IMG/VR virus record: IMGVR_UViG_3300028797_000101
Location: 64,001-128,000 of that record
Source of the DNA: a virus
Taxonomy: Duplodnaviria; Caudoviricetes
Reading direction: 5' to 3' (one strand)
Length of the DNA stretch: 64,000 bases
Positions 3,532-58,824 of the stretch are shown here, one piece after another. Every line of letters starts with the position of its first letter. Position 1 is the first letter of the stretch. Below the pieces are notes generated by a model that made no database searches, had not been told where the DNA came from, and worked only from the letters and a program-made list of their open reading frames with translations. The position numbers and the translations under genes were made by a program.

Positions 3532-3551
3532 CACAAAATACCAAAATCGTT

Positions 3552-50840: not shown

Positions 50841-51608
50841 TCAGATGTTATCGAGATTTTTATGTAACTTTTGATACAACATCTTTTCCGCCTTAGGTAA
50901 CTTTAGGGCTAATATATCATAATCTATCTGATAAATTTCTGACATTTTCTTCAATTTACTAGTGGTCAATTTAGACTCAGATTCAAGCATCTCGTGGATG
51001 AGTAATTCTTCAATAGTGTTGTAATTATCAGACATACTGATATCTTTATGTGAGTGATCAACGGAAGGTACAAATGGTTCATGATCTTCCCAATTTGCTT
51101 CATATAGCGACCCGAATATTGCTTGAAGTGTTACCATCTTTTCCGGAGACAGCTTCAATCTAGGATCTGAGAGATCTTCATATTTAACTTGACCCCAATG
51201 CTTGCCGAGTTGCGCTCCAACTTCCATGCAAAGTGTTCGTCGAATAGAATACTTGACCTCGTTCAATTCTCTCTCAATCATCTCTCCAATCCTAGGCTTG
51301 AAGAATACAGAAAAGGAAAGATCTGTGCGATAACCTTTGTGAGTTTCATCACCTTGCCATTTATACCACCACCAGCACTCCATAAAATGTGTACAAGCGG
51401 ATTGATACTTATCTTCATATGTAACAGAGGAATTGTTGATGAATGTTTTTGATGCTATGTAGCCGAAGAACGCTTGATTCAATAGAAATATCTGGTCTCT
51501 AATATCAGTCTGTTGCATTCTCAGTATTTTATTCTGAGGCAATCTGTCATATAATGCAAGTGTTTGTTGTTTGATTGCTTCTGATTTCGATACAGATGAA
51601 TCTATCAC
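50841..51608 (-). CDS. phage sigma factor-like protein
   Basis: RDQIFLLNQAFFGYIASK...EDKYQSA...SFSVFFKPRIGEMIEREL aligns by eye with sigma70 region 2; C-terminal helical HTH-like segment. Confidence 0.6.
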   Translation of the reverse strand: MIDSSVSKSEAIKQQTLALYDRLPQNKILRMQQTDIRDQIFLLNQAFFGYIASKTFINNSSVTYEDKYQSACTHFMECWWWYKWQGDETHKGYRTDLSFSVFFKPRIGEMIERELNEVKYSIRRTLCMEVGAQLGKHWGQVKYEDLSDPRLKLSPEKMVTLQAIFGSLYEANWEDHEPFVPSVDHSHKDISMSDNYNTIEELLIHEMLESESKLTTSKLKKMSEIYQIDYDILALKLPKAEKMLYQKLHKNLDNI

Positions 51609-51627
51609 TTCTGAACCCCCTACAAAG

Positions 51628-52143
51628 TTAAATAAATTCGTAGATCTTTCCTTTGATCATTTCATGATTTCGTAGCTTTTTAGTGATGGTACCTCTAGAT
51701 AAACCAGTTACATTGCAAACTTGCTGTATAGATGCAAATTGCTCATTTGAATCTACACATCGTATCTTAAGACCTCCATAAGGCGCAGGAGGTTTACGTC
51801 TGCCATCTTTTATGTTCTGCTTTGCAATCTCAGAAATAGTCTTCCATTCTAAGTTATCCACACAACAGTTAGATTTATCCCCATCTCTGAAAACAATCCA
51901 ACTAGGTTCAGAAGGTTCTGTAAGAAACGCGTTAGCTACTAGCTGATGAATAGCAAAGCTCTTAGAACTAAAGTTCACATACAAAAATCCTTTTGCATCG
52001 GCTCTTGGTTGAATAAGCTTCGATTCAACATGCTGTTCAGATCCATCATCAAAACACATCTTGTATCCAGATTTCTTTACATTACCTTTATCAGAAATCA
52101 GATATCCAACGCATCCATCAATAGGTCGCCAAATCTCATTCAT
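51628..52143 (-). CDS. NUMOD4-HNH family protein, degenerate nuclease site
   Basis: EIWRPI.G..GYLISDKGNVK, IHQLVANAF, DGDKSN..VDNLEW, NUMOD1-like C-terminal HTH. Confidence 0.8.
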   Translation of the reverse strand: MNEIWRPIDGCVGYLISDKGNVKKSGYKMCFDDGSEQHVESKLIQPRADAKGFLYVNFSSKSFAIHQLVANAFLTEPSEPSWIVFRDGDKSNCCVDNLEWKTISEIAKQNIKDGRRKPPAPYGGLKIRCVDSNEQFASIQQVCNVTGLSRGTITKKLRNHEMIKGKIYEFI

Positions 52144-52167
52144 AAATTATTGCCCTCCTACATATTT

Positions 52168-52196
52168 ATTATAAGATAGACATAGCGAGAAGTCAA
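52168..52196 (-). promoter_or_regulatory. sigma70/sigmaA-type promoter for the HNH-sigma pair
   Basis: TTGACT-N17-TATAAT on the minus strand. Confidence 0.75.
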
Positions 52197-52265
52197 GTAA
52201 AAATCACCAAATTTCTTACAATCTTGAACGATTTAAGTTGATTACAAATTTGGAATAAGATCGTC

Positions 52266-52371
52266 TAAAATCAAAAATGTAGAAATTTGGACATTTTGTA
52301 AATAAAATCAAAAATGTAGAAAATTGGACATTTTCCAGCTAAATATCAAAATGTAGAAATTTGGACATTTT
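52266..52371. repeat. three ~32-bp direct repeats (37-bp period), iteron/operator-like; candidate origin
   Basis: TAAAATCAAAAATGTAGAAATTTGGACATTTT-like units at 52266, 52303, 52340, followed by a very A-rich tract. Confidence 0.8.
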
Positions 52372-52562
52372 TGCATAGTGCTACGAAATCACTTTTGTCC
52401 AAATTTAACGGTTTTTGCGAACATAATTTAAAAGAAAGTTAATCTTTTTAAATTTAAAAAAATAAATAAAAAAATAACTCCTCACTCAACTCAAAAAAAA
52501 ATAAAAGGCAAAAGGCAGTAAAAGGCAATCGTTAAAAATTTTAGCAAAAATAAAAATAGGGC

Positions 52563-52591
52563 TTGACTTTTCGCAATTTATCGCATACAAT
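52563..52591 (+). promoter_or_regulatory. sigma70/sigmaA-type promoter
   Basis: TTGACT-N17-TACAAT with A-rich upstream sequence. Confidence 0.7.
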
Positions 52592-52613
52592 AAGTCCATT
52601 AACACATATCATC

Positions 52614-52801
52614 GAATGCGGCGTTGATATGAGTTGCCTGGTAGACTTGTGTCAGCCGCATCTGACATATCTACACAGTTCAACGTTAGGACTAATTGTA
52701 TATGGCGCCGGTTCGTTCAATTTTATTGAGCGGAAGACCGAGGTCGCAGCTATACAACGAGGTCTGCTGGAGAGAGGGCAATTCATATCAACGCCGCATT
52801 C
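52614..52801 (+). ncRNA. 188-nt structured RNA/leader closed by a 25-bp stem
   Basis: GAATGCGGCGTTGATATGAGTTGCC / GGCAATTCATATCAACGCCGCATTC plus internal hairpins. Confidence 0.6.
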
Positions 52802-52835
52802 ATGTTGTACTGAAGTAAGGAGGTGAACTTTACTA

Positions 52836-53735
52836 TTGGATATTCACAGTGCAGAAGCTCATATGGAGAAGGTACTGCAGTATTTAGAGCAGATGCATGA
52901 CAACAATTCATCTCTTTATTCTAAAACACGAGAAAAACTGAAAAATATTAGCAATGATCTTTTTAGAGGATTGAAGCTAGTATCAGAAATCCTTGAGGAA
53001 GATTCACTTGTCGTTGAAGCAGAGTTTGAAGGAACAGATGAATCTATCATATCGTCTGTGAAGTCTATGAAAGAGCAATCTGAAGAGATCTCACAAGTCA
53101 TTGACCGAGTAGATAGTTTTGTTTATTCTCCTCATCCAGAGCCGAAGTTGACATACTCACCCAACAAGCTCAGTGCTAAGAAGAGAAAGCACATTGTTTA
53201 CACCTACGGGCAAGTTTTGAAGAAAGTAGCCGGTGCATCAACACCTTACAAGTCTGTCCGAGATTGTGCAGCACTCATCTGGAGATGGTACGACACGAGA
53301 TTTTTCTTATCATCACAATCATGTCCTAAGTTTCACTACAATATTCATAACATTCCCGAATGTATCAAATGGATAGTTTTAGCTTACAGCAAACACTTAT
53401 CTGACCATACACTAGATTCCTTCCTTTCTGACTTTGATACTTGGCTGAGCTCGTTATTATATCCGAAATCTGGTAATAATTATGTTTTACCTTACGCAAT
53501 ATTCAAGATCGGGCGAGAAACAAAGATCTCAGACGTTTCTCAAGCTTCAATCATGATATGGGACATTTTATTCGATCTAGGATATTCTGAACTATCAACT
53601 GATGACCTCGCAGATGTTAAGCTTCAGTCAGAAACACTCTACAATCTGGCAGTTAAGATTGCACCAGATATTGCTGACAATTACGTGTATTATGAAGAAG
53701 ATGATTCACTTCTCAGATCTTTGGAGGTAAATTAA
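52836..53735 (+). CDS. hypothetical protein (first gene of the replication operon)
   Basis: AAGGAGGTG RBS, 299-aa ORF. Confidence 0.7.
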   Translation: MDIHSAEAHMEKVLQYLEQMHDNNSSLYSKTREKLKNISNDLFRGLKLVSEILEEDSLVVEAEFEGTDESIISSVKSMKEQSEEISQVIDRVDSFVYSPHPEPKLTYSPNKLSAKKRKHIVYTYGQVLKKVAGASTPYKSVRDCAALIWRWYDTRFFLSSQSCPKFHYNIHNIPECIKWIVLAYSKHLSDHTLDSFLSDFDTWLSSLLYPKSGNNYVLPYAIFKIGRETKISDVSQASIMIWDILFDLGYSELSTDDLADVKLQSETLYNLAVKIAPDIADNYVYYEEDDSLLRSLEVN

Positions 53736-53738
53736 CTC

Positions 53739-55037
53739 ATGAGTCGCATAACAAAGTTCTCTCAAATAACTTCATCCCTTCCTTATCCTGCACAAAGTAG
53801 AGGTCTGTTGCAATCTATTCATTCTTCTATTGTCACTGCTGTATGTGAGAAAGGTGAATTGACCAGAAAGGAAAGCAGAAATGTAATCAAGCTGATCAAC
53901 ACGATCACTTATCAGTGTGTTCAGCAAGAAAGCATATCTTGGAAGAAGGAAGATCCACTGAACTTCACAAATTTAACTGTAGACGAAGATACCTTGCAGC
54001 AAGTACTTGGAAACATGTATCTAGTTTACCGAAACATAAATTGGAAAGCTGATGAGATAGACATTGTAGCCGAAACACAACCAGAGATAGCTAATCTAGT
54101 AGAGAAAAAGTTATCAGGTAGCGAGCCTATTGGTGAAAAGTTATCAGGCAGTGAACCTAGTGAGAAGAATCTATCAGGCAGTGAACCTGTTGATGAAAAG
54201 TTATCAGGTAGCGAGCCTATTGAGAATAAATCTGCTAAATCGGATATAGAGAACGCTAATGTAGTTACTCAGCAGGTGCCAGTTTATGTTGATGCTACAT
54301 CAAACATTGCTGCTGAGCTCACGCCAAAAGAGGATCTTTACATACAACCACCATTAGTTCCTAGGTTCAATCCTCTACATATGGTAGCTTCTAAGGCTAT
54401 TGGTGATTGTCAGTACGAAATATATGAATCTTATCCTATCATACCAAAGAAGCAGAATGAGATCTCTATGACAACGGATGTCAACAGAATGACTTCTAAG
54501 GATCTACGAAATCTGTTCCCCAATAGAAGAATCTGCACAAGGGCTTCTGTCATGTATGAAGAACAAGATCATTTAGAGATGCATCCTATCTTAGGATTGA
54601 TCATCCCAATTGAAGGTTTCACTAGAGATCAACTCATTGACAATCTTATCAAGTATCCTCACATATTCCGTCTGACTAAGATCGTCAATAATGATATCGT
54701 GAGTTTCTATACTACTGTTGAAATCGATGGAGAGCTTCAGAAAATAACAGAAATTTGGAACACACTTCCTGAGTCTAAATACATTCCTTACAATAGAGAT
54801 TTCGTTAAAGAGTATGTAGTTAGACGATATCTTTTGGAGAGAGATGTAAAAGGTATTCATCATAAGTATCCACTGTTTGGTACACTTGATCCCTATTTGA
54901 CCTTGTTTACCACACCCAATGAATACATACAACTCGGAATAGATGATATAGATTCTCTTGCTAGATCTTGTGTGAGAGCTAGAGTTTCTTATAAACAAAG
55001 CAGAAATCCTGTAATCCGGAGGTTGCAAAATGCGTAA
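53739..55037 (+). CDS. hypothetical protein with four internal 10-aa repeats; possible replication initiator
   Basis: (E/K)(K/N)LSGSEP x4; located before the loader-like gene and DnaB. Confidence 0.55.
   Translation: MSRITKFSQITSSLPYPAQSRGLLQSIHSSIVTAVCEKGELTRKESRNVIKLINTITYQCVQQESISWKKEDPLNFTNLTVDEDTLQQVLGNMYLVYRNINWKADEIDIVAETQPEIANLVEKKLSGSEPIGEKLSGSEPSEKNLSGSEPVDEKLSGSEPIENKSAKSDIENANVVTQQVPVYVDATSNIAAELTPKEDLYIQPPLVPRFNPLHMVASKAIGDCQYEIYESYPIIPKKQNEISMTTDVNRMTSKDLRNLFPNRRICTRASVMYEEQDHLEMHPILGLIIPIEGFTRDQLIDNLIKYPHIFRLTKIVNNDIVSFYTTVEIDGELQKITEIWNTLPESKYIPYNRDFVKEYVVRRYLLERDVKGIHHKYPLFGTLDPYLTLFTTPNEYIQLGIDDIDSLARSCVRARVSYKQSRNPVIRRLQNA
54102..54221 (+). repeat. four 30-bp tandem coding repeats
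   Basis: core TATCAGG(T/C)AG(C/T)GA(G/A)CCT. Confidence 0.85.
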
Positions 55038-55650
55038 TTGTATCTTTACTGCGCATTGCACAGAACTATTTTGTGATCGGTCTTGTCCTACATTTGTAGA
55101 AACAACATATCTTCTTGAAAGGAACGGAATAGGTCTAAACAATTCCGTCTTTCAGGCTGAAGATGCATCTGTCTTGAAATCATTGAATGTTCTCGCTAAG
55201 TTCCAGGGATCATTCGGTGCATTTAAGTGTGAAGATACACTTAAGTGGGCAGACCTACTCACATATTGTGCAATATGCCAAAATTGGAAAGGTAGTCAAC
55301 TTCATTGCACTGTATTCAATTTGAAGTATGCGAAATATCTAGACGACCTCAAGAAGAGCTGGTCAGGTCCTGCTCCAGAAAGCTTAGAGCTGACGCAAAT
55401 CTGGATGCAAACTGCAAAGATACTGATTGTGTCTAATTTAGATTATGTAAACTTTGGAGATTTTGAAAGCCAAACTCTTCTGAATACTATACAACTTCGA
55501 GCAGCGGAGAATTTAACTACTATTGTCGTTGTACCTTCGCTAGGAATTGTGACAAAGCCGGGAGGGCTCAATTCATTCCCTATACTCCTCAAAAAGAAGA
55601 TTGATTCATCGCTCTACAAAGAATCAAAGATTGGGGGTGTACAGCGGTGA
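55030..55650 (+). CDS. degenerate DnaC/IstB-like helicase loader
   Basis: N-terminal Cys cluster; KILIVSNLD and QLRAAENLTTIV resemble DnaC LLIIDDL and R....LPTI; directly before DnaB. Confidence 0.5.
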   Translation: MRNCIFTAHCTELFCDRSCPTFVETTYLLERNGIGLNNSVFQAEDASVLKSLNVLAKFQGSFGAFKCEDTLKWADLLTYCAICQNWKGSQLHCTVFNLKYAKYLDDLKKSWSGPAPESLELTQIWMQTAKILIVSNLDYVNFGDFESQTLLNTIQLRAAENLTTIVVVPSLGIVTKPGGLNSFPILLKKKIDSSLYKESKIGGVQR

Positions 55651-57014
55651 GTGTTACTTCCATAGAGCTTCAAGTAATTTCAAGAATCTTAACCTCCAAA
55701 GATCCGAAAGACGTGGACACACTTTGTGCCTACGATTTATCATATTTTTCTGTATTCAAACAGCATATGGAATTTATTCTCAACCATAGACAAAGGTATG
55801 GAGATGTTCCAGATGTTTTTACATTTCAAGCTCAGTTCCCTGACGTCACGTTAGTAAGCGTAACAGAACCTATTCAGTATCTCATAGATGGTCTTAAAGA
55901 ATACAAAAGACAGCTTATCTTGATTGAGACCTTCAACAAGATAAAGGATCTGGGTTCTGGGGACATAAATGATGCATGGGCCTACTTGGAATCACAATGC
56001 GAACGAGCTGCACAACTTGATTCTACAAAGCCGATGGACATTGTTCATGATTCCAAACAAAGAGCAGATCAAGTTATCGCGTTTAACAAGCAAGCCAGGA
56101 TACCAACAGGATTTGCAGAAATTGACAAACTGATGTATGGTGGATTGTCAACAGTAGAAGAATTACTTCTTTTAGTAGCAAGAACTAACACCGGTAAATC
56201 TTGGATCTGTACAAAGATGATGGAGTCTGCACAAAAACATGGATTCGCAGTGCTTTACTACTCACCAGAAATGCAAGCATCATTTCTTGGTACTCGTTTT
56301 GATACTTGGAGAACACATACACCAAATAGTCAGATCTTCCGAGGTAACTACACTGAAGAGTATGTAGAATATCTTGATAAACTCAGTCAAGAAGAAACAA
56401 GCGCATTTATTCTCGAAGATAAAGATGTAGAGGGAGGAGCTGTAAACGTAAAGGCACTTGATAATCTCGTTAAAAAGTACAACGTAAAACTTCTCATCAT
56501 TGACGGTTTGTCTTACATGGATGATCCGCAGAAAGCGCCCACGGATTATCTGAAATACAAAAATATCTGTAATGGTCTATTCAAATTAAGTAAGACTAGA
56601 GGATGCGCAGTAGTAGTTGCGATGCAGGCAAACAGAGAGACGCAGAACTGCAAGGATGATAAAGGGGAACCTTTTCCAGGTCTGATGCAGGTTGAAGGAA
56701 GCGACCATCCTGCTAGAATCGCAACTCAGGCTTTCGCTATTCGTCAGATATTTGACAAACATGTGCTTGACATAAGACTTGAGAAATCAAGAAACGCAAA
56801 CAATCAGAAACCAGTTCTTAGTTACGCCTGGGATATCAACACAGGAAACATGCAGTATCTTCCGAATGGTGATGACGGATCCATTACTCCGGCTACTTCA
56901 ACTCCTGGCTCTGTTGTCCCTGTAGTTAGCGGAGTTACTACTAATATTAAAAGTTCTGATGATTTCAGTGCTTTGATCGATATGGACGATTCAGATGATG
57001 ATGTAGAATTCTAA
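55647..57014 (+). CDS. dnaB: DnaB-like replicative helicase
   Basis: IPTGF..ID...GGL, ARTNTGKS, YSPEM, LLIIDGL, QANR, LEKSRN. Confidence 0.9.
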   Translation: MSVTSIELQVISRILTSKDPKDVDTLCAYDLSYFSVFKQHMEFILNHRQRYGDVPDVFTFQAQFPDVTLVSVTEPIQYLIDGLKEYKRQLILIETFNKIKDLGSGDINDAWAYLESQCERAAQLDSTKPMDIVHDSKQRADQVIAFNKQARIPTGFAEIDKLMYGGLSTVEELLLLVARTNTGKSWICTKMMESAQKHGFAVLYYSPEMQASFLGTRFDTWRTHTPNSQIFRGNYTEEYVEYLDKLSQEETSAFILEDKDVEGGAVNVKALDNLVKKYNVKLLIIDGLSYMDDPQKAPTDYLKYKNICNGLFKLSKTRGCAVVVAMQANRETQNCKDDKGEPFPGLMQVEGSDHPARIATQAFAIRQIFDKHVLDIRLEKSRNANNQKPVLSYAWDINTGNMQYLPNGDDGSITPATSTPGSVVPVVSGVTTNIKSSDDFSALIDMDDSDDDVEF

Positions 57015-57270
57015 GCAATAGGTTCAGCGAAAGGAGAAAACATGAAGTTCATAGAAGTACACACAGAAACCGGAAATTCAATATTCGTAAATGTTAACAA
57101 CATCGACTACATTTTGTTTAATGATACATATACACGTATTCGTTTTAATAATGGTAATGTGCTAGATATATCTGAAAACTCGGAAAAGATTTCAACTATG
57201 CTTTGTGCTTTTACGTATTAAACAACCATGATTCAGTTAATGTAGAATAACAATGATGAGGTGATTTCAT

Positions 57271-57786
57271 ATGGAATTTAGCGTAGACGAGTTCATTGCA
57301 TATCACAACAGCAAATACAGAAACTATTGCGAAGCAATTATTCTTCCAGATGGTCAAATAACTTATTCCGAACCCTCTCATGTTTACAAGCTTCAGATGA
57401 TATGGGGTGTACCTAAAGAAGAACTATATTGCGGCGGTGAAAAGAGAGATGAACTTTGGAGTATCATTCCACAATTTGCGTCTCCTATTCATTGGTTGAG
57501 TGAAGCGCTGAATTGCGTAGTCCTTTGGTATGATGCGATTATCTTTCCGCCTAACTATACAGAAGCTCAGATGTATTCTGTCAAGCAGCTCATGAAAAAC
57601 AAGTGTATTGACGCATATCCTCTGATTCAGGTTACTACAGAAAAAGATATTTGCGATCTTGCTAATCGAGATACCAATCGCATACAAGACATAATTAAGA
57701 TGGAAAACAATGTGAAAACTAAGATCCGTTCAGAACTATTTCCCGAAAATTTTATAAATTTGGAAAAAGGGCTTGACTTTTCCTAG
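57271..57786 (+). CDS. hypothetical protein
   Basis: GAGGTG RBS. Confidence 0.7.
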   Translation: MEFSVDEFIAYHNSKYRNYCEAIILPDGQITYSEPSHVYKLQMIWGVPKEELYCGGEKRDELWSIIPQFASPIHWLSEALNCVVLWYDAIIFPPNYTEAQMYSVKQLMKNKCIDAYPLIQVTTEKDICDLANRDTNRIQDIIKMENNVKTKIRSELFPENFINLEKGLDFS

Positions 57787-57801
57787 TGTTCCGTCTATAA
57801 T
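57773..57801 (+). promoter_or_regulatory. strong sigma70-type early promoter
   Basis: TTGACT-N17-TATAAT; shares GTTCCGTCTATAATAA(C/T)ACTTGTA with the 60967 promoter. Confidence 0.8.
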
Positions 57802-57879
57802 AACACTTGTAACAGATAAATAAACAGTTGAATCGTTACTGTTTCATACAAAAATATCAAAGGTACAGGAGGTACGCGT

Positions 57880-58824
57880 ATGGCAGCATTAGTTGAGAAC
57901 ATGTTTTATGTAGGTAGAGAAGTTCCTTGGCACGGATTAGGAGTTCAGCTTAACAATCCACCCACCAGTAAGGAAGCGATCGTAGCAGCTGGTCTTGATT
58001 GGGAAGTTATCCCGAAGCCTATCTTCAATGAGAAGGGTGTTCAGATTCCTAACTACGTAGCTAACGTCAGATCGTCTGATGATTCCGTTCTCGGTATCGT
58101 GACCAACAGATACACGATCGTCCAGAACGCAGAAGCATTTGATTTCACCGACAGCTTGGTGAACGTAGAAGGTGGTATGAAGTTTGAGACGGCCGGCAGC
58201 TTGAGAGACGGCAAGCAGATCTGGCTTCTGGGCAAGATGCCTAAGACAAAGATTCTTGGTGATGACGTAGAGCCTTACATCTGTTTCACCAATACGCATG
58301 ACGGCACCGGAGCTGTTAGAGTCTGCATGACTCCTATCAGAGTTGTTTGCAACAACACTCTTAACTTAGCTCTTGACACCGCTAAGAGATCTTGGTCAAC
58401 TCGTCATATCGGCGACATCAACGGAAAGGTTCAGGAAGCTCAGGCCACTCTCGGACTTGTAGACGCTTATATGTCTTCGCTCAAGACGGAGTGCGAGAAG
58501 CTCGCAGATGCAAAAGTATCTGATGCAGAAGTGGAGGCCCTTTTCGACATGCTTTATCCGGTGAATGAAATGACTTCTGACATCACCAGAAAGCGCATCG
58601 AGGTAACCAAGGAAGCCTTCTTCAAGTGCTTGCAGGCGGAGGACATGAAGAAGTTCAAGGGCACCGGTTACGGAGCAATCATGGCCATCACGGATCATGC
58701 AGATCATAGTGCTCCTATGAGAAAGACTCAGAACTTCGAGCAGAACAGATGGGGATCTATCATCGTCGGCCATCCTTTCGTAGACGCGATGTACAAAGGC
58801 ATCAAGAAGATCATCGCAGCATAA
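57880..58824 (+). CDS. DUF932 family protein
   Basis: PWHGLG, AGLDWEV, VQN.EAFDF, ETAGSL, NTHDG, TPIRVVCNNTL. Confidence 0.88.
   Translation: MAALVENMFYVGREVPWHGLGVQLNNPPTSKEAIVAAGLDWEVIPKPIFNEKGVQIPNYVANVRSSDDSVLGIVTNRYTIVQNAEAFDFTDSLVNVEGGMKFETAGSLRDGKQIWLLGKMPKTKILGDDVEPYICFTNTHDGTGAVRVCMTPIRVVCNNTLNLALDTAKRSWSTRHIGDINGKVQEAQATLGLVDAYMSSLKTECEKLADAKVSDAEVEALFDMLYPVNEMTSDITRKRIEVTKEAFFKCLQAEDMKKFKGTGYGAIMAITDHADHSAPMRKTQNFEQNRWGSIIVGHPFVDAMYKGIKKIIAA

Follow-up and report, generated by a model that had tools for sequence, protein, structure and literature searches.

A structured RNA family with a covarying alternative pairing at the head of the replication operon of uncultured phages

In phage lambda, the constitutive 194-nt '6S' transcript that runs from pR′ to tR′ is read through by Q antitermination. 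In terminator/antiterminator leaders, such as those of the pT181 and pIP501 rep genes, the T-box RNAs and the protein-dependent attenuators, the 5′ half of a G+C-rich stem standing before a U tract has an alternative partner. A further arrangement is found in hok mRNA, whose 5′ tac element has three alternative partners: the 3′ fbi element, an internal box and, for a short time only, a region not far downstream (PMC9841398). Alternative pairings that are conserved mark out RNA switches and programmed folding pathways, and they are seldom visible from sequence alone. The present analysis concerns an element of uncultured phages in which known principles (fold-back closure, metastable alternative pairing and a terminator-like end) are found in a new architecture. 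Evidence for a phage non-coding RNA is rarely so clean: it consists of 15 lineages, dozens of compensatory changes and a second pairing that covaries and is exclusive of the first. The element also stands at the meeting point of early transcription by the host polymerase, replication genes and a putative origin, and it offers in this way a handle on replication timing.

Setting and anatomy of the element

The virus record is a complete 159-kb genome with direct terminal repeats, and 'the window' denotes the whole 64,000-nt stretch analysed, namely bases 64001-128000 of that genome; positions given without a contig handle are those of the window. The element occupies 52614-52801 on the + strand, beside the putative origin and the replication genes, and BLAST, motif search and covariance model agree on one copy of it in the 159-kb genome. 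To its left, a NUMOD4/HNH-like gene and a ~255-aa gene (50841-52143, − strand) precede three iteron-like direct repeats of ~30 bp read in the sequence (52267-52372, + strand; core AAAATGTAGAAATTTGGACATTTT), which are followed by a very A+T-rich tract (52420 to ~52560; GC 0.23-0.26). The repeats and the tract together form a putative origin. In all lineages discussed below, iteron-like repeats and an A+T-rich tract sit between divergent gene blocks (as in L018 8530-8660, L006 4470-4670 and L008 2840-3050), and the repeat sequence at this position differs from lineage to lineage, as expected for co-evolving initiator/origin pairs. The leftward position of the NUMOD4/HNH-like and ~255-aa genes beside the repeats is likewise kept in distant lineages (L006 3125-4392; L008 1351-2707; L103 1-842; L105 1-968); a mobile homing endonuclease would not usually be so constant in position, which suggests that the role at this locus is a fixed one.

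A sigma-A-type promoter (TTGACT-17-TACAAT, 52563-52591, + strand, consensus score 10/12) precedes the element, and an equivalent TTGAC(T/A)-17-TATAAT is found upstream of it in most lineages. The first paired base of the element lies 22 nt past the −10 hexamer, and the ribosome-binding site AAGGAGG (52817-52823, + strand) begins 15 nt past the last paired base, close to the ~20 and ~15 nt given in the first-pass annotation, a model's reading of the sequence without database searches. The GC-rich character that it ascribed to the element relative to its flanks was also confirmed, with a GC content of 0.47 as against 0.23-0.26 just upstream and 0.35 downstream; genomes of the element-bearing clade have ~40% G+C. 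The ribosome-binding site is followed by the first gene of the replication operon (TTG start at 52836, end at 53735, + strand), and the genes downstream, all on the + strand, encode three proteins of unknown family and, after them, a DnaB-type helicase, a DUF932 protein and a Toprim primase. The product of the first gene (299 aa) has a confident all-alpha structure prediction (pLDDT 86) with no fold match in the PDB and no Pfam family, and therefore offers no clue to a protein partner. The second operon protein (432 aa, gene 53739-55037) contains, at ~54075-54200, four tandem copies of (E/N)KLSGSEP plus a few variable residues. As a further side observation, the DnaB-type helicase of L008 (7758-9977) has 739 aa and a Hom_end domain, and probably contains an intein, the window helicase having 455 aa and no such domain.

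The element is closed by a helix, P1, of 25 bp with a single G-U, whose 5′ strand (52614-52638) pairs with its 3′ strand (52777-52801). Within it come the hairpin P2 (52641-52674), formed by the segments GUAGA..UGUCAG and CUGACA..UCUAC around the apical loop CCGCAU (52656-52661); the junction motif CACAGUUC (52674-52681); the long irregular hairpin P3, UUGUAUA...UAUACAA (52696-52757); and the purine-rich junction motif GCUGGAGAGAG (52766-52776). All these segments are on the + strand, and the closing stem and both inner hairpins are exactly as had been described at first pass. The tail 3′ of P1 (52802-52816, + strand) is moderately U-rich. The minimum free energy of the fold is −87.7 kcal/mol, compared with −50.7 +/- 4.2 kcal/mol for 200 dinucleotide shuffles (z = −8.84), none of which folds as well. 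P3 is the expandable part of the family. Its 3′ half (52716-52755) is a hot spot of substitutions and indels relative to L001 and L009, which are otherwise 91-94% identical to the window in this region; P1, P2 and the junctions are identical among the three.

Two candidate coding readings of the region were rejected. An 87-aa open frame spans it, and 1-2-nt indels in its interior, seen between relatives whose neighbouring protein is 91-93% identical, break the frame, so that it is not coding. A mini-ORF in the 5′ strand (AUG-CGG-CGU-UGA) lacks a Shine-Dalgarno sequence and is not preserved in L018, L100 or L103.

Resemblance to known RNA families was assessed with Rfam 15. At the gathering threshold the window gives tRNAs only (it holds six tRNA genes), and at E <= 10 the interval 52400-53000 gives two chance snoRNA matches, both outside the element; relatives L018 and L064 give nothing. 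The check for 6S, retron and cis-regulator models thus returned no match. This bears on the suggestion, made in the first-pass annotation, of a 6S-like sink that would sequester host sigma-A RNA polymerase. A size of ~190 nt and presumed early expression from a host promoter are indeed shared with 6S RNA. However, no 6S model matches at E <= 10, the fold is a three- or four-way junction and not a rod with the large central bubble that mimics an open promoter, and family members go down to 100 nt. A polymerase decoy is hardly credible.

Relatives, covariation and the strand under selection

Relatives were sought in the DNA upstream of homologues of the 299-aa protein and by scans of sequence collections for the arm motifs. 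The protein has 425 representative relatives in metagenome assemblies (clusters at 50% identity), and the element was found in 15 independent lineages of uncultured phages: the window with L001 and L009; L006/L007; L008; L018; L064; L086; L088/L099; L091; L092; L093-L097; L100/L101; L103; L106; L109/L110; and L111; to these is added L087, cut off by the end of its contig. The neighbouring proteins of the relatives are 25-42% identical to those of the window. The family anatomy consists of the closing helix P1 (25-44 bp), hairpin P2 and a P3 of variable length, to which the larger forms add the two junction motifs (conserved there by alignment A5 and motif scan); sizes range from 100 nt (L018 and L064, made of P1, P2 and a short P3) to 194 nt. 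The element is missing from L105, L108, L096, L098 and L090, though the operon is kept.

In some lineages genes have been inserted between the promoter-adjacent element and the replication genes, namely in L008 (3472-4965, an Amidase_2 plus ChW endolysin-like gene and a 119-aa gene) and in L109/L110 (230-240 aa; L109 765-1457). The element stays by the promoter and the repeats despite these insertions, and is thus promoter-proximal rather than gene-specific. In addition, the ribosome-binding site of the next gene lies outside the structure in all cases, which speaks against the element being a translational operator of the first replication protein. The clade, one of large phages, has been seen only in metagenomes, from the gut and elsewhere (pig gut is the source of one contig), and carries Gram-positive-type signals; the ChW domain of the L008 endolysin-like gene hints at clostridial-type hosts. 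Against 50,697 cultured phage records, neither blastn with the element and its surroundings nor tblastn with the downstream protein family gave a match. A literature search with the motif returned primers only. With no Rfam model and a clade without cultured members, the element is a new RNA family, and a catalogue of ~8,500 candidate structured RNAs from IMG/VR (PMC10690425) may contain the motif.

The motif scans gave few members. In a first viral pattern scan, two of 54 matches were genuine, the other 52 being G+C-rich coding sequence. A metagenome scan requiring both arms gave 16 matches, among which the only members were L064 and L077 (on the same contig as L018); the sole match in genome_contigs, L084, falls inside a coding region of a Victivallaceae MAG and is attributed to chance. 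Three contigs (L065 7093-7234; L071 1398-1538; L072 314-454, − strand) carry a ~141-nt structured element of ~67% G+C that has in common with the window element the exact 12-nt arms GAATGCGGCGTT and AACGCCGCATT and has no P2-type loop; it is missed by the covariance model and is therefore treated as unrelated. In L071, a group II intron domain lies ~1 kb upstream of this G+C-rich element. The arm motif also led to a metagenome contig, L070, with a 138-nt near-perfect hairpin (794-931) made of tandem GCGGCGTTT units around an A+T-rich centre.

Covariation was measured on alignment A5, in which the 25 pairs of P1 in 17 sequences give 425 cells. Pairs are standard in 97.9% of the cells, and 19 of the 25 pairs have changed on both sides. 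None of 500 shuffles attains any of the five P1 covariation measures, and sliding the partner by 1-3 columns lowers pairing to 29-49%. The same helix is returned by unguided RNAalifold, with 27 pairs, 21 of them compensatory. Whatever the total size, P1 has at least 25 bp, with at most one or two non-pairs per lineage. The non-Watson-Crick cells of P1, read on the + strand, comprise 32 G-U or U-G and two A-C or C-A, and since the former would be mismatches on the other strand, this asymmetry argues for selection on the + strand RNA. A covariance model built from seven short members finds + strand matches in nine of ten other sequences (E from 1e-16 to 2.5e-6), missing the most diverged, L100; in every member the + strand has the higher score of the two. 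Selection at the RNA level had been proposed at first pass from the G-U pairs of one sequence, with covariation in related phages as its test; covariation was found in 15 lineages, and the wobble asymmetry agrees with it. It is therefore strongly supported, on comparative grounds, that the element is a genuine structured RNA, selected as RNA on a promoter-driven transcript. The sequence UGCGGCGUUGA in P1 is conserved beyond the needs of either of its pairings, which hints at a protein or a nuclease reading the helix.

The same observations weigh on readings of the locus as mobile, reverse-transcribed or coding DNA. A terminal inverted repeat recalls the a1/a2 arms of retron msr-msd RNA or the ends of a transposon, and the 87-aa frame is open across the region. 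The first-pass annotation had noted the retron-like layout together with the lack of a reverse transcriptase in the window, and had offered a retron decoy as one reading. The a1/a2-type terminal helix of 25 bp is present and is not retron-specific, while the complete 159-kb genome, beyond the window, gives no RVT_1 match at E <= 1 (control genomes do match) and the downstream proteins have no reverse transcriptase match in Pfam or PHROG. The retron part of that proposal therefore falls. Furthermore, phages with as little as 25-40% identity in the neighbouring protein still have the element in synteny and as a single copy, the wobble asymmetry speaks against a double-stranded DNA repeat, and the small indels would break any frame. 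That the element is a retron RNA, a miniature inverted-repeat DNA element or a small coding region has accordingly a probability close to negligible.

A role linked to the origin has more to be said for it. The element lies next to the iteron-like repeats and the A+T-rich tract and heads a helicase/primase operon, so its transcript could prime or activate replication at that origin, or a hairpin of the + strand DNA could load the primosome or helicase; G-T wobbles in single-stranded + strand DNA would yield the same asymmetry as that observed. On the other side, the element always follows a sigma-A promoter of the same orientation, whose direction is away from the repeats, and a persistent RNA-DNA hybrid would call for just the contrary of a G+C-rich, self-paired transcript. 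Moreover, the iterons vary by lineage and the core of the element is conserved, and some lineages with the same replication genes do without the element. Such a role is very improbable.

A second partner for the closing strand

The key feature of the element, overlooked in the first-pass annotation, is that the P2 loop and the 5′ strand of P1 are complementary and covary. The apical loop can pair without mismatch, by Watson-Crick pairs only, with the basal 6-9 nt of that strand in 14 of the 15 lineages, the exception being L088 (loop CCGCAA), with five matches and one mismatch. In the window, the loop CCGCAU is complementary to 52616-52621, and the segment 52616-52622 (AUGCGGC) is thus a partner both of the loop and of the P1 3′ strand. 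The combination of 5′ strand AUGCGG with loop CCGCAU occurs in six lineages, and GUGCGG with CCGCAC in five, to which L088 is joined with its imperfect loop; GUGAGG faces CCUCAC in L092, GUGUGG faces CCACAC in L106, and GGUCGUAGC (GUCGUAG) faces GCUACGACC (CUACGAC) in L100. The six core loop pairs are 96% paired on the raw alignment, in which two members are misaligned at this place, versus 21-51% when slid.

The loop follows the 5′ strand and not the 3′ strand: in L100, L109, L103, L093, L018 and L064, the 3′ strand has drifted to G-U pairs or mismatches and the loop remains a perfect complement. The loop duplex is worth −9 to −20 kcal/mol, as against −12.5 to −24 kcal/mol for the outer 12 bp of P1, and it is the stronger of the two in L100, L093 and L109. 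The P2 loop lies 37-44 nt from the first P1 base in every lineage. The 5′ strand can thus meet two partners, first the P2 loop and then, 60-150 nt later, the P1 3′ strand, and when transcripts that end before the 3′ strand are folded (window, L018 and L064), the 5′ strand is found on the loop sequence. Since the same nucleotides are unable to pair twice, two mutually exclusive RNA states are defined, and the covarying contact between loop and 5′ strand points to a possible RNA switch. No other complement of the loop or of the arm was found in the host phage genome that could serve as a target in trans.

The 3′ side of P1 is terminator-like in part. The base of the helix is G+C-rich, with a U-rich tail directly after it, and when the 15 lineages are summed, U accounts for 100 of the 180 bases (56%) in the first 12 nt after P1. 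The runs are strong in L106, L100, L088, L091 and L093; most relatives are more U-rich than the window, whose tail (AUGUUGUACU) is the weakest with 5 U in 12 nt. In L106, L092 and L100, P1 is lengthened to 31-44 bp by pairs between A-rich sequence on its 5′ side and U-rich sequence on its 3′ side, and ends in runs such as UUUUUGU. No terminator is called in 52100-58000 by a simple consensus scan, and P1 encloses 50-140 nt of branched structure, as against the 3-8 nt loop of a simple terminator hairpin.

A second signal belongs to this picture. The motif TCGTTATA, or (A/T)TCGTTAT(A/T), looks like a phage-specific promoter element, perhaps read by a sigma-like protein encoded nearby. Thirteen of its 14 copies in the genome are on the + strand, mostly 20-60 nt before start codons (for example at 3547, 23039, 23924, 24436, 25985, 26379 and 30317), and it recurs in relatives. 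At several sites of the genome it sits ~10-12 nt past an ordinary terminator hairpin with a T run. In eight of the 15 lineages a copy is found 3′ of P1, starting 11-14 nt after the helix in six of them, 17 nt after it in L086 and 6 nt after it in L103. In the remaining lineages the motif lies 29-135 nt upstream of the element, the window having its copy AATCGTTAAAAAT at 52528-52540 (+ strand); L006 and L008 have no copy within the flanks searched. The spacing after P1 is close to that after terminator hairpins, which indicates that P1 holds the place of the terminator in the apparent terminator-promoter punctuation of the clade.

This arrangement would also suit a stand-alone early small RNA that acts in trans on a host or phage factor, with P1 and the U tail as its own terminator and the loop contact as a folding guide or as a site of pairing in trans. 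With a phage-type promoter-like motif just after the element in eight of 15 lineages, the sigma-A promoter and the element look like a separate unit, and the fold is very stable, the junction motifs and the helix sequence are conserved, and the element is evolutionarily dispensable, as its absence from five relatives shows. Yet the only conserved sequence to which the loop is complementary belongs to the RNA itself, namely its 5′ strand, the element necessarily lies in the operon leader in the window lineage, and no Rfam family resembles it. A trans-acting RNA is thus possible, if on the doubtful side.

The length of P1 raises a different prospect. Bacterial RNase III cuts duplexes of ~20 bp or more, and a near-perfect duplex of at least 25 bp is present in every lineage, whatever the total size, with a strong AAGGAGG close downstream. 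The element may therefore be a processing or mRNA-stability module in which the 25-44-bp helix would be cut, setting the 5′ end and the half-life of the replication mRNA, and in which the loop contact would shorten the helix below the required size; an RNase III-processed leader was among the first-pass proposals, as was a replication-control RNA, and the element may be either. The complete phage genome has no RNase III gene, so this reading would rely on the host enzyme. The conservation of sequence in the outer helix is not needed by RNase III, however, and P2, P3 and the junction motifs are left unexplained. Taken as the main function, such processing appears rather unlikely; it is compatible with the attenuator-like role considered next and not exclusive of it.

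Possible roles and comparison with known systems

The explanation that best accommodates these features is a bistable early leader, or attenuator, which would gate host-polymerase transcription into the replication genes, and to which we assign a probability of roughly 0.4, judging from sequence comparison. In such a scheme, host sigma-A RNA polymerase would make the RNA at the start of infection from the near-consensus promoter next to the putative origin. Before synthesis is complete, the 5′ strand would be captured by the P2 loop, giving a metastable, anti-terminator-like state. Once the 3′ strand has emerged, P1 would zip from the junction outward, displace the loop and close its G+C-rich base at the U tract. 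Full closure would terminate the early transcript, or commit it to processing by exposing a duplex of at least 25 bp to RNase III; if closure were delayed, the polymerase would continue into the replication genes, so that the balance between the states would set the level of read-through. This balance could be shifted by a protein at the loop or junction, by the speed of the polymerase or by the RNA itself.

The strongest argument for an attenuator-like role is that the loop contact involves precisely the stretch of the stem on whose pairing termination would depend. We infer that transcription may terminate at P1. In the window phage, the tail is weak and no phage-type motif lies between element and operon, which means that read-through must be the rule in this phage. 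Besides this weak tail, other considerations go against the attenuator. A terminator stem built around a branched insert of 50-140 nt is unusual, and the loop contact could be undone by branch migration starting in inner P1 before the polymerase leaves the U tract, in which case the contact would be a folding aid and not a regulator. The conservation of UGCGGCGUUGA, greater than either pairing calls for, also weighs against it. A variant can also be envisaged in which the RNA times itself: the P2 loops of finished RNAs would pair in trans with nascent 5′ strands and block the terminator-like closure, so that read-through into the helicase/primase operon would set in once the RNA has accumulated. 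This would amount to an antisense-style copy-control circuit in which regulator and target are the same RNA species, but it is distinctly improbable. Should the element be merely an ordinary terminator with a folding aid, it would still be a new RNA family meriting a database entry. The minimal forms, of 100 nt, are small enough for structure probing, single-molecule folding and in vitro transcription.

Among described systems, the phi29 packaging RNA (pRNA) resembles the element in size, in the long helix formed by its 5′ and 3′ ends, in its three-way junction with two hairpins and in a loop complementarity that covaries and is important to function. Nevertheless, no Rfam pRNA match is obtained, the P2 loop is complementary to the molecule's own closing helix, whereas in pRNA two loops pair between molecules, and the phage is one of 159 kb, with the element in its replication module. 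The likeness to lambda pR′-tR′ lies in a strong host-type promoter and an RNA of ~200 nt that ends before a gene block dependent on read-through. In contrast to lambda, neither a Q-like factor nor a qut site was found, the RNA fold seems to make the decision, and the downstream genes are replication and not late genes.

With the terminator/antiterminator leaders the element shares the alternative partner for the 5′ half of a G+C-rich stem before a U tract, and a promoter-proximal position ahead of an operon that needs timing. It differs from them in that the competing segment is inside the terminator 'loop' and not upstream, in its 25-44-bp stem around a branched domain and in the absence of any Rfam leader match. 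As in hok mRNA, a 5′ element closes the RNA with a far 3′ end, an alternative internal partner is met first during transcription, and coupled covariation backs both pairings. Unlike hok, the element has no toxin ORF, antisense partner or sequestered translation signals, its alternative pairing involves a hairpin loop where hok has a linear box, and it forms an early phage leader in a genome of Gram-positive type, so that the likeness is one of working principle and not of sequence or family relation.
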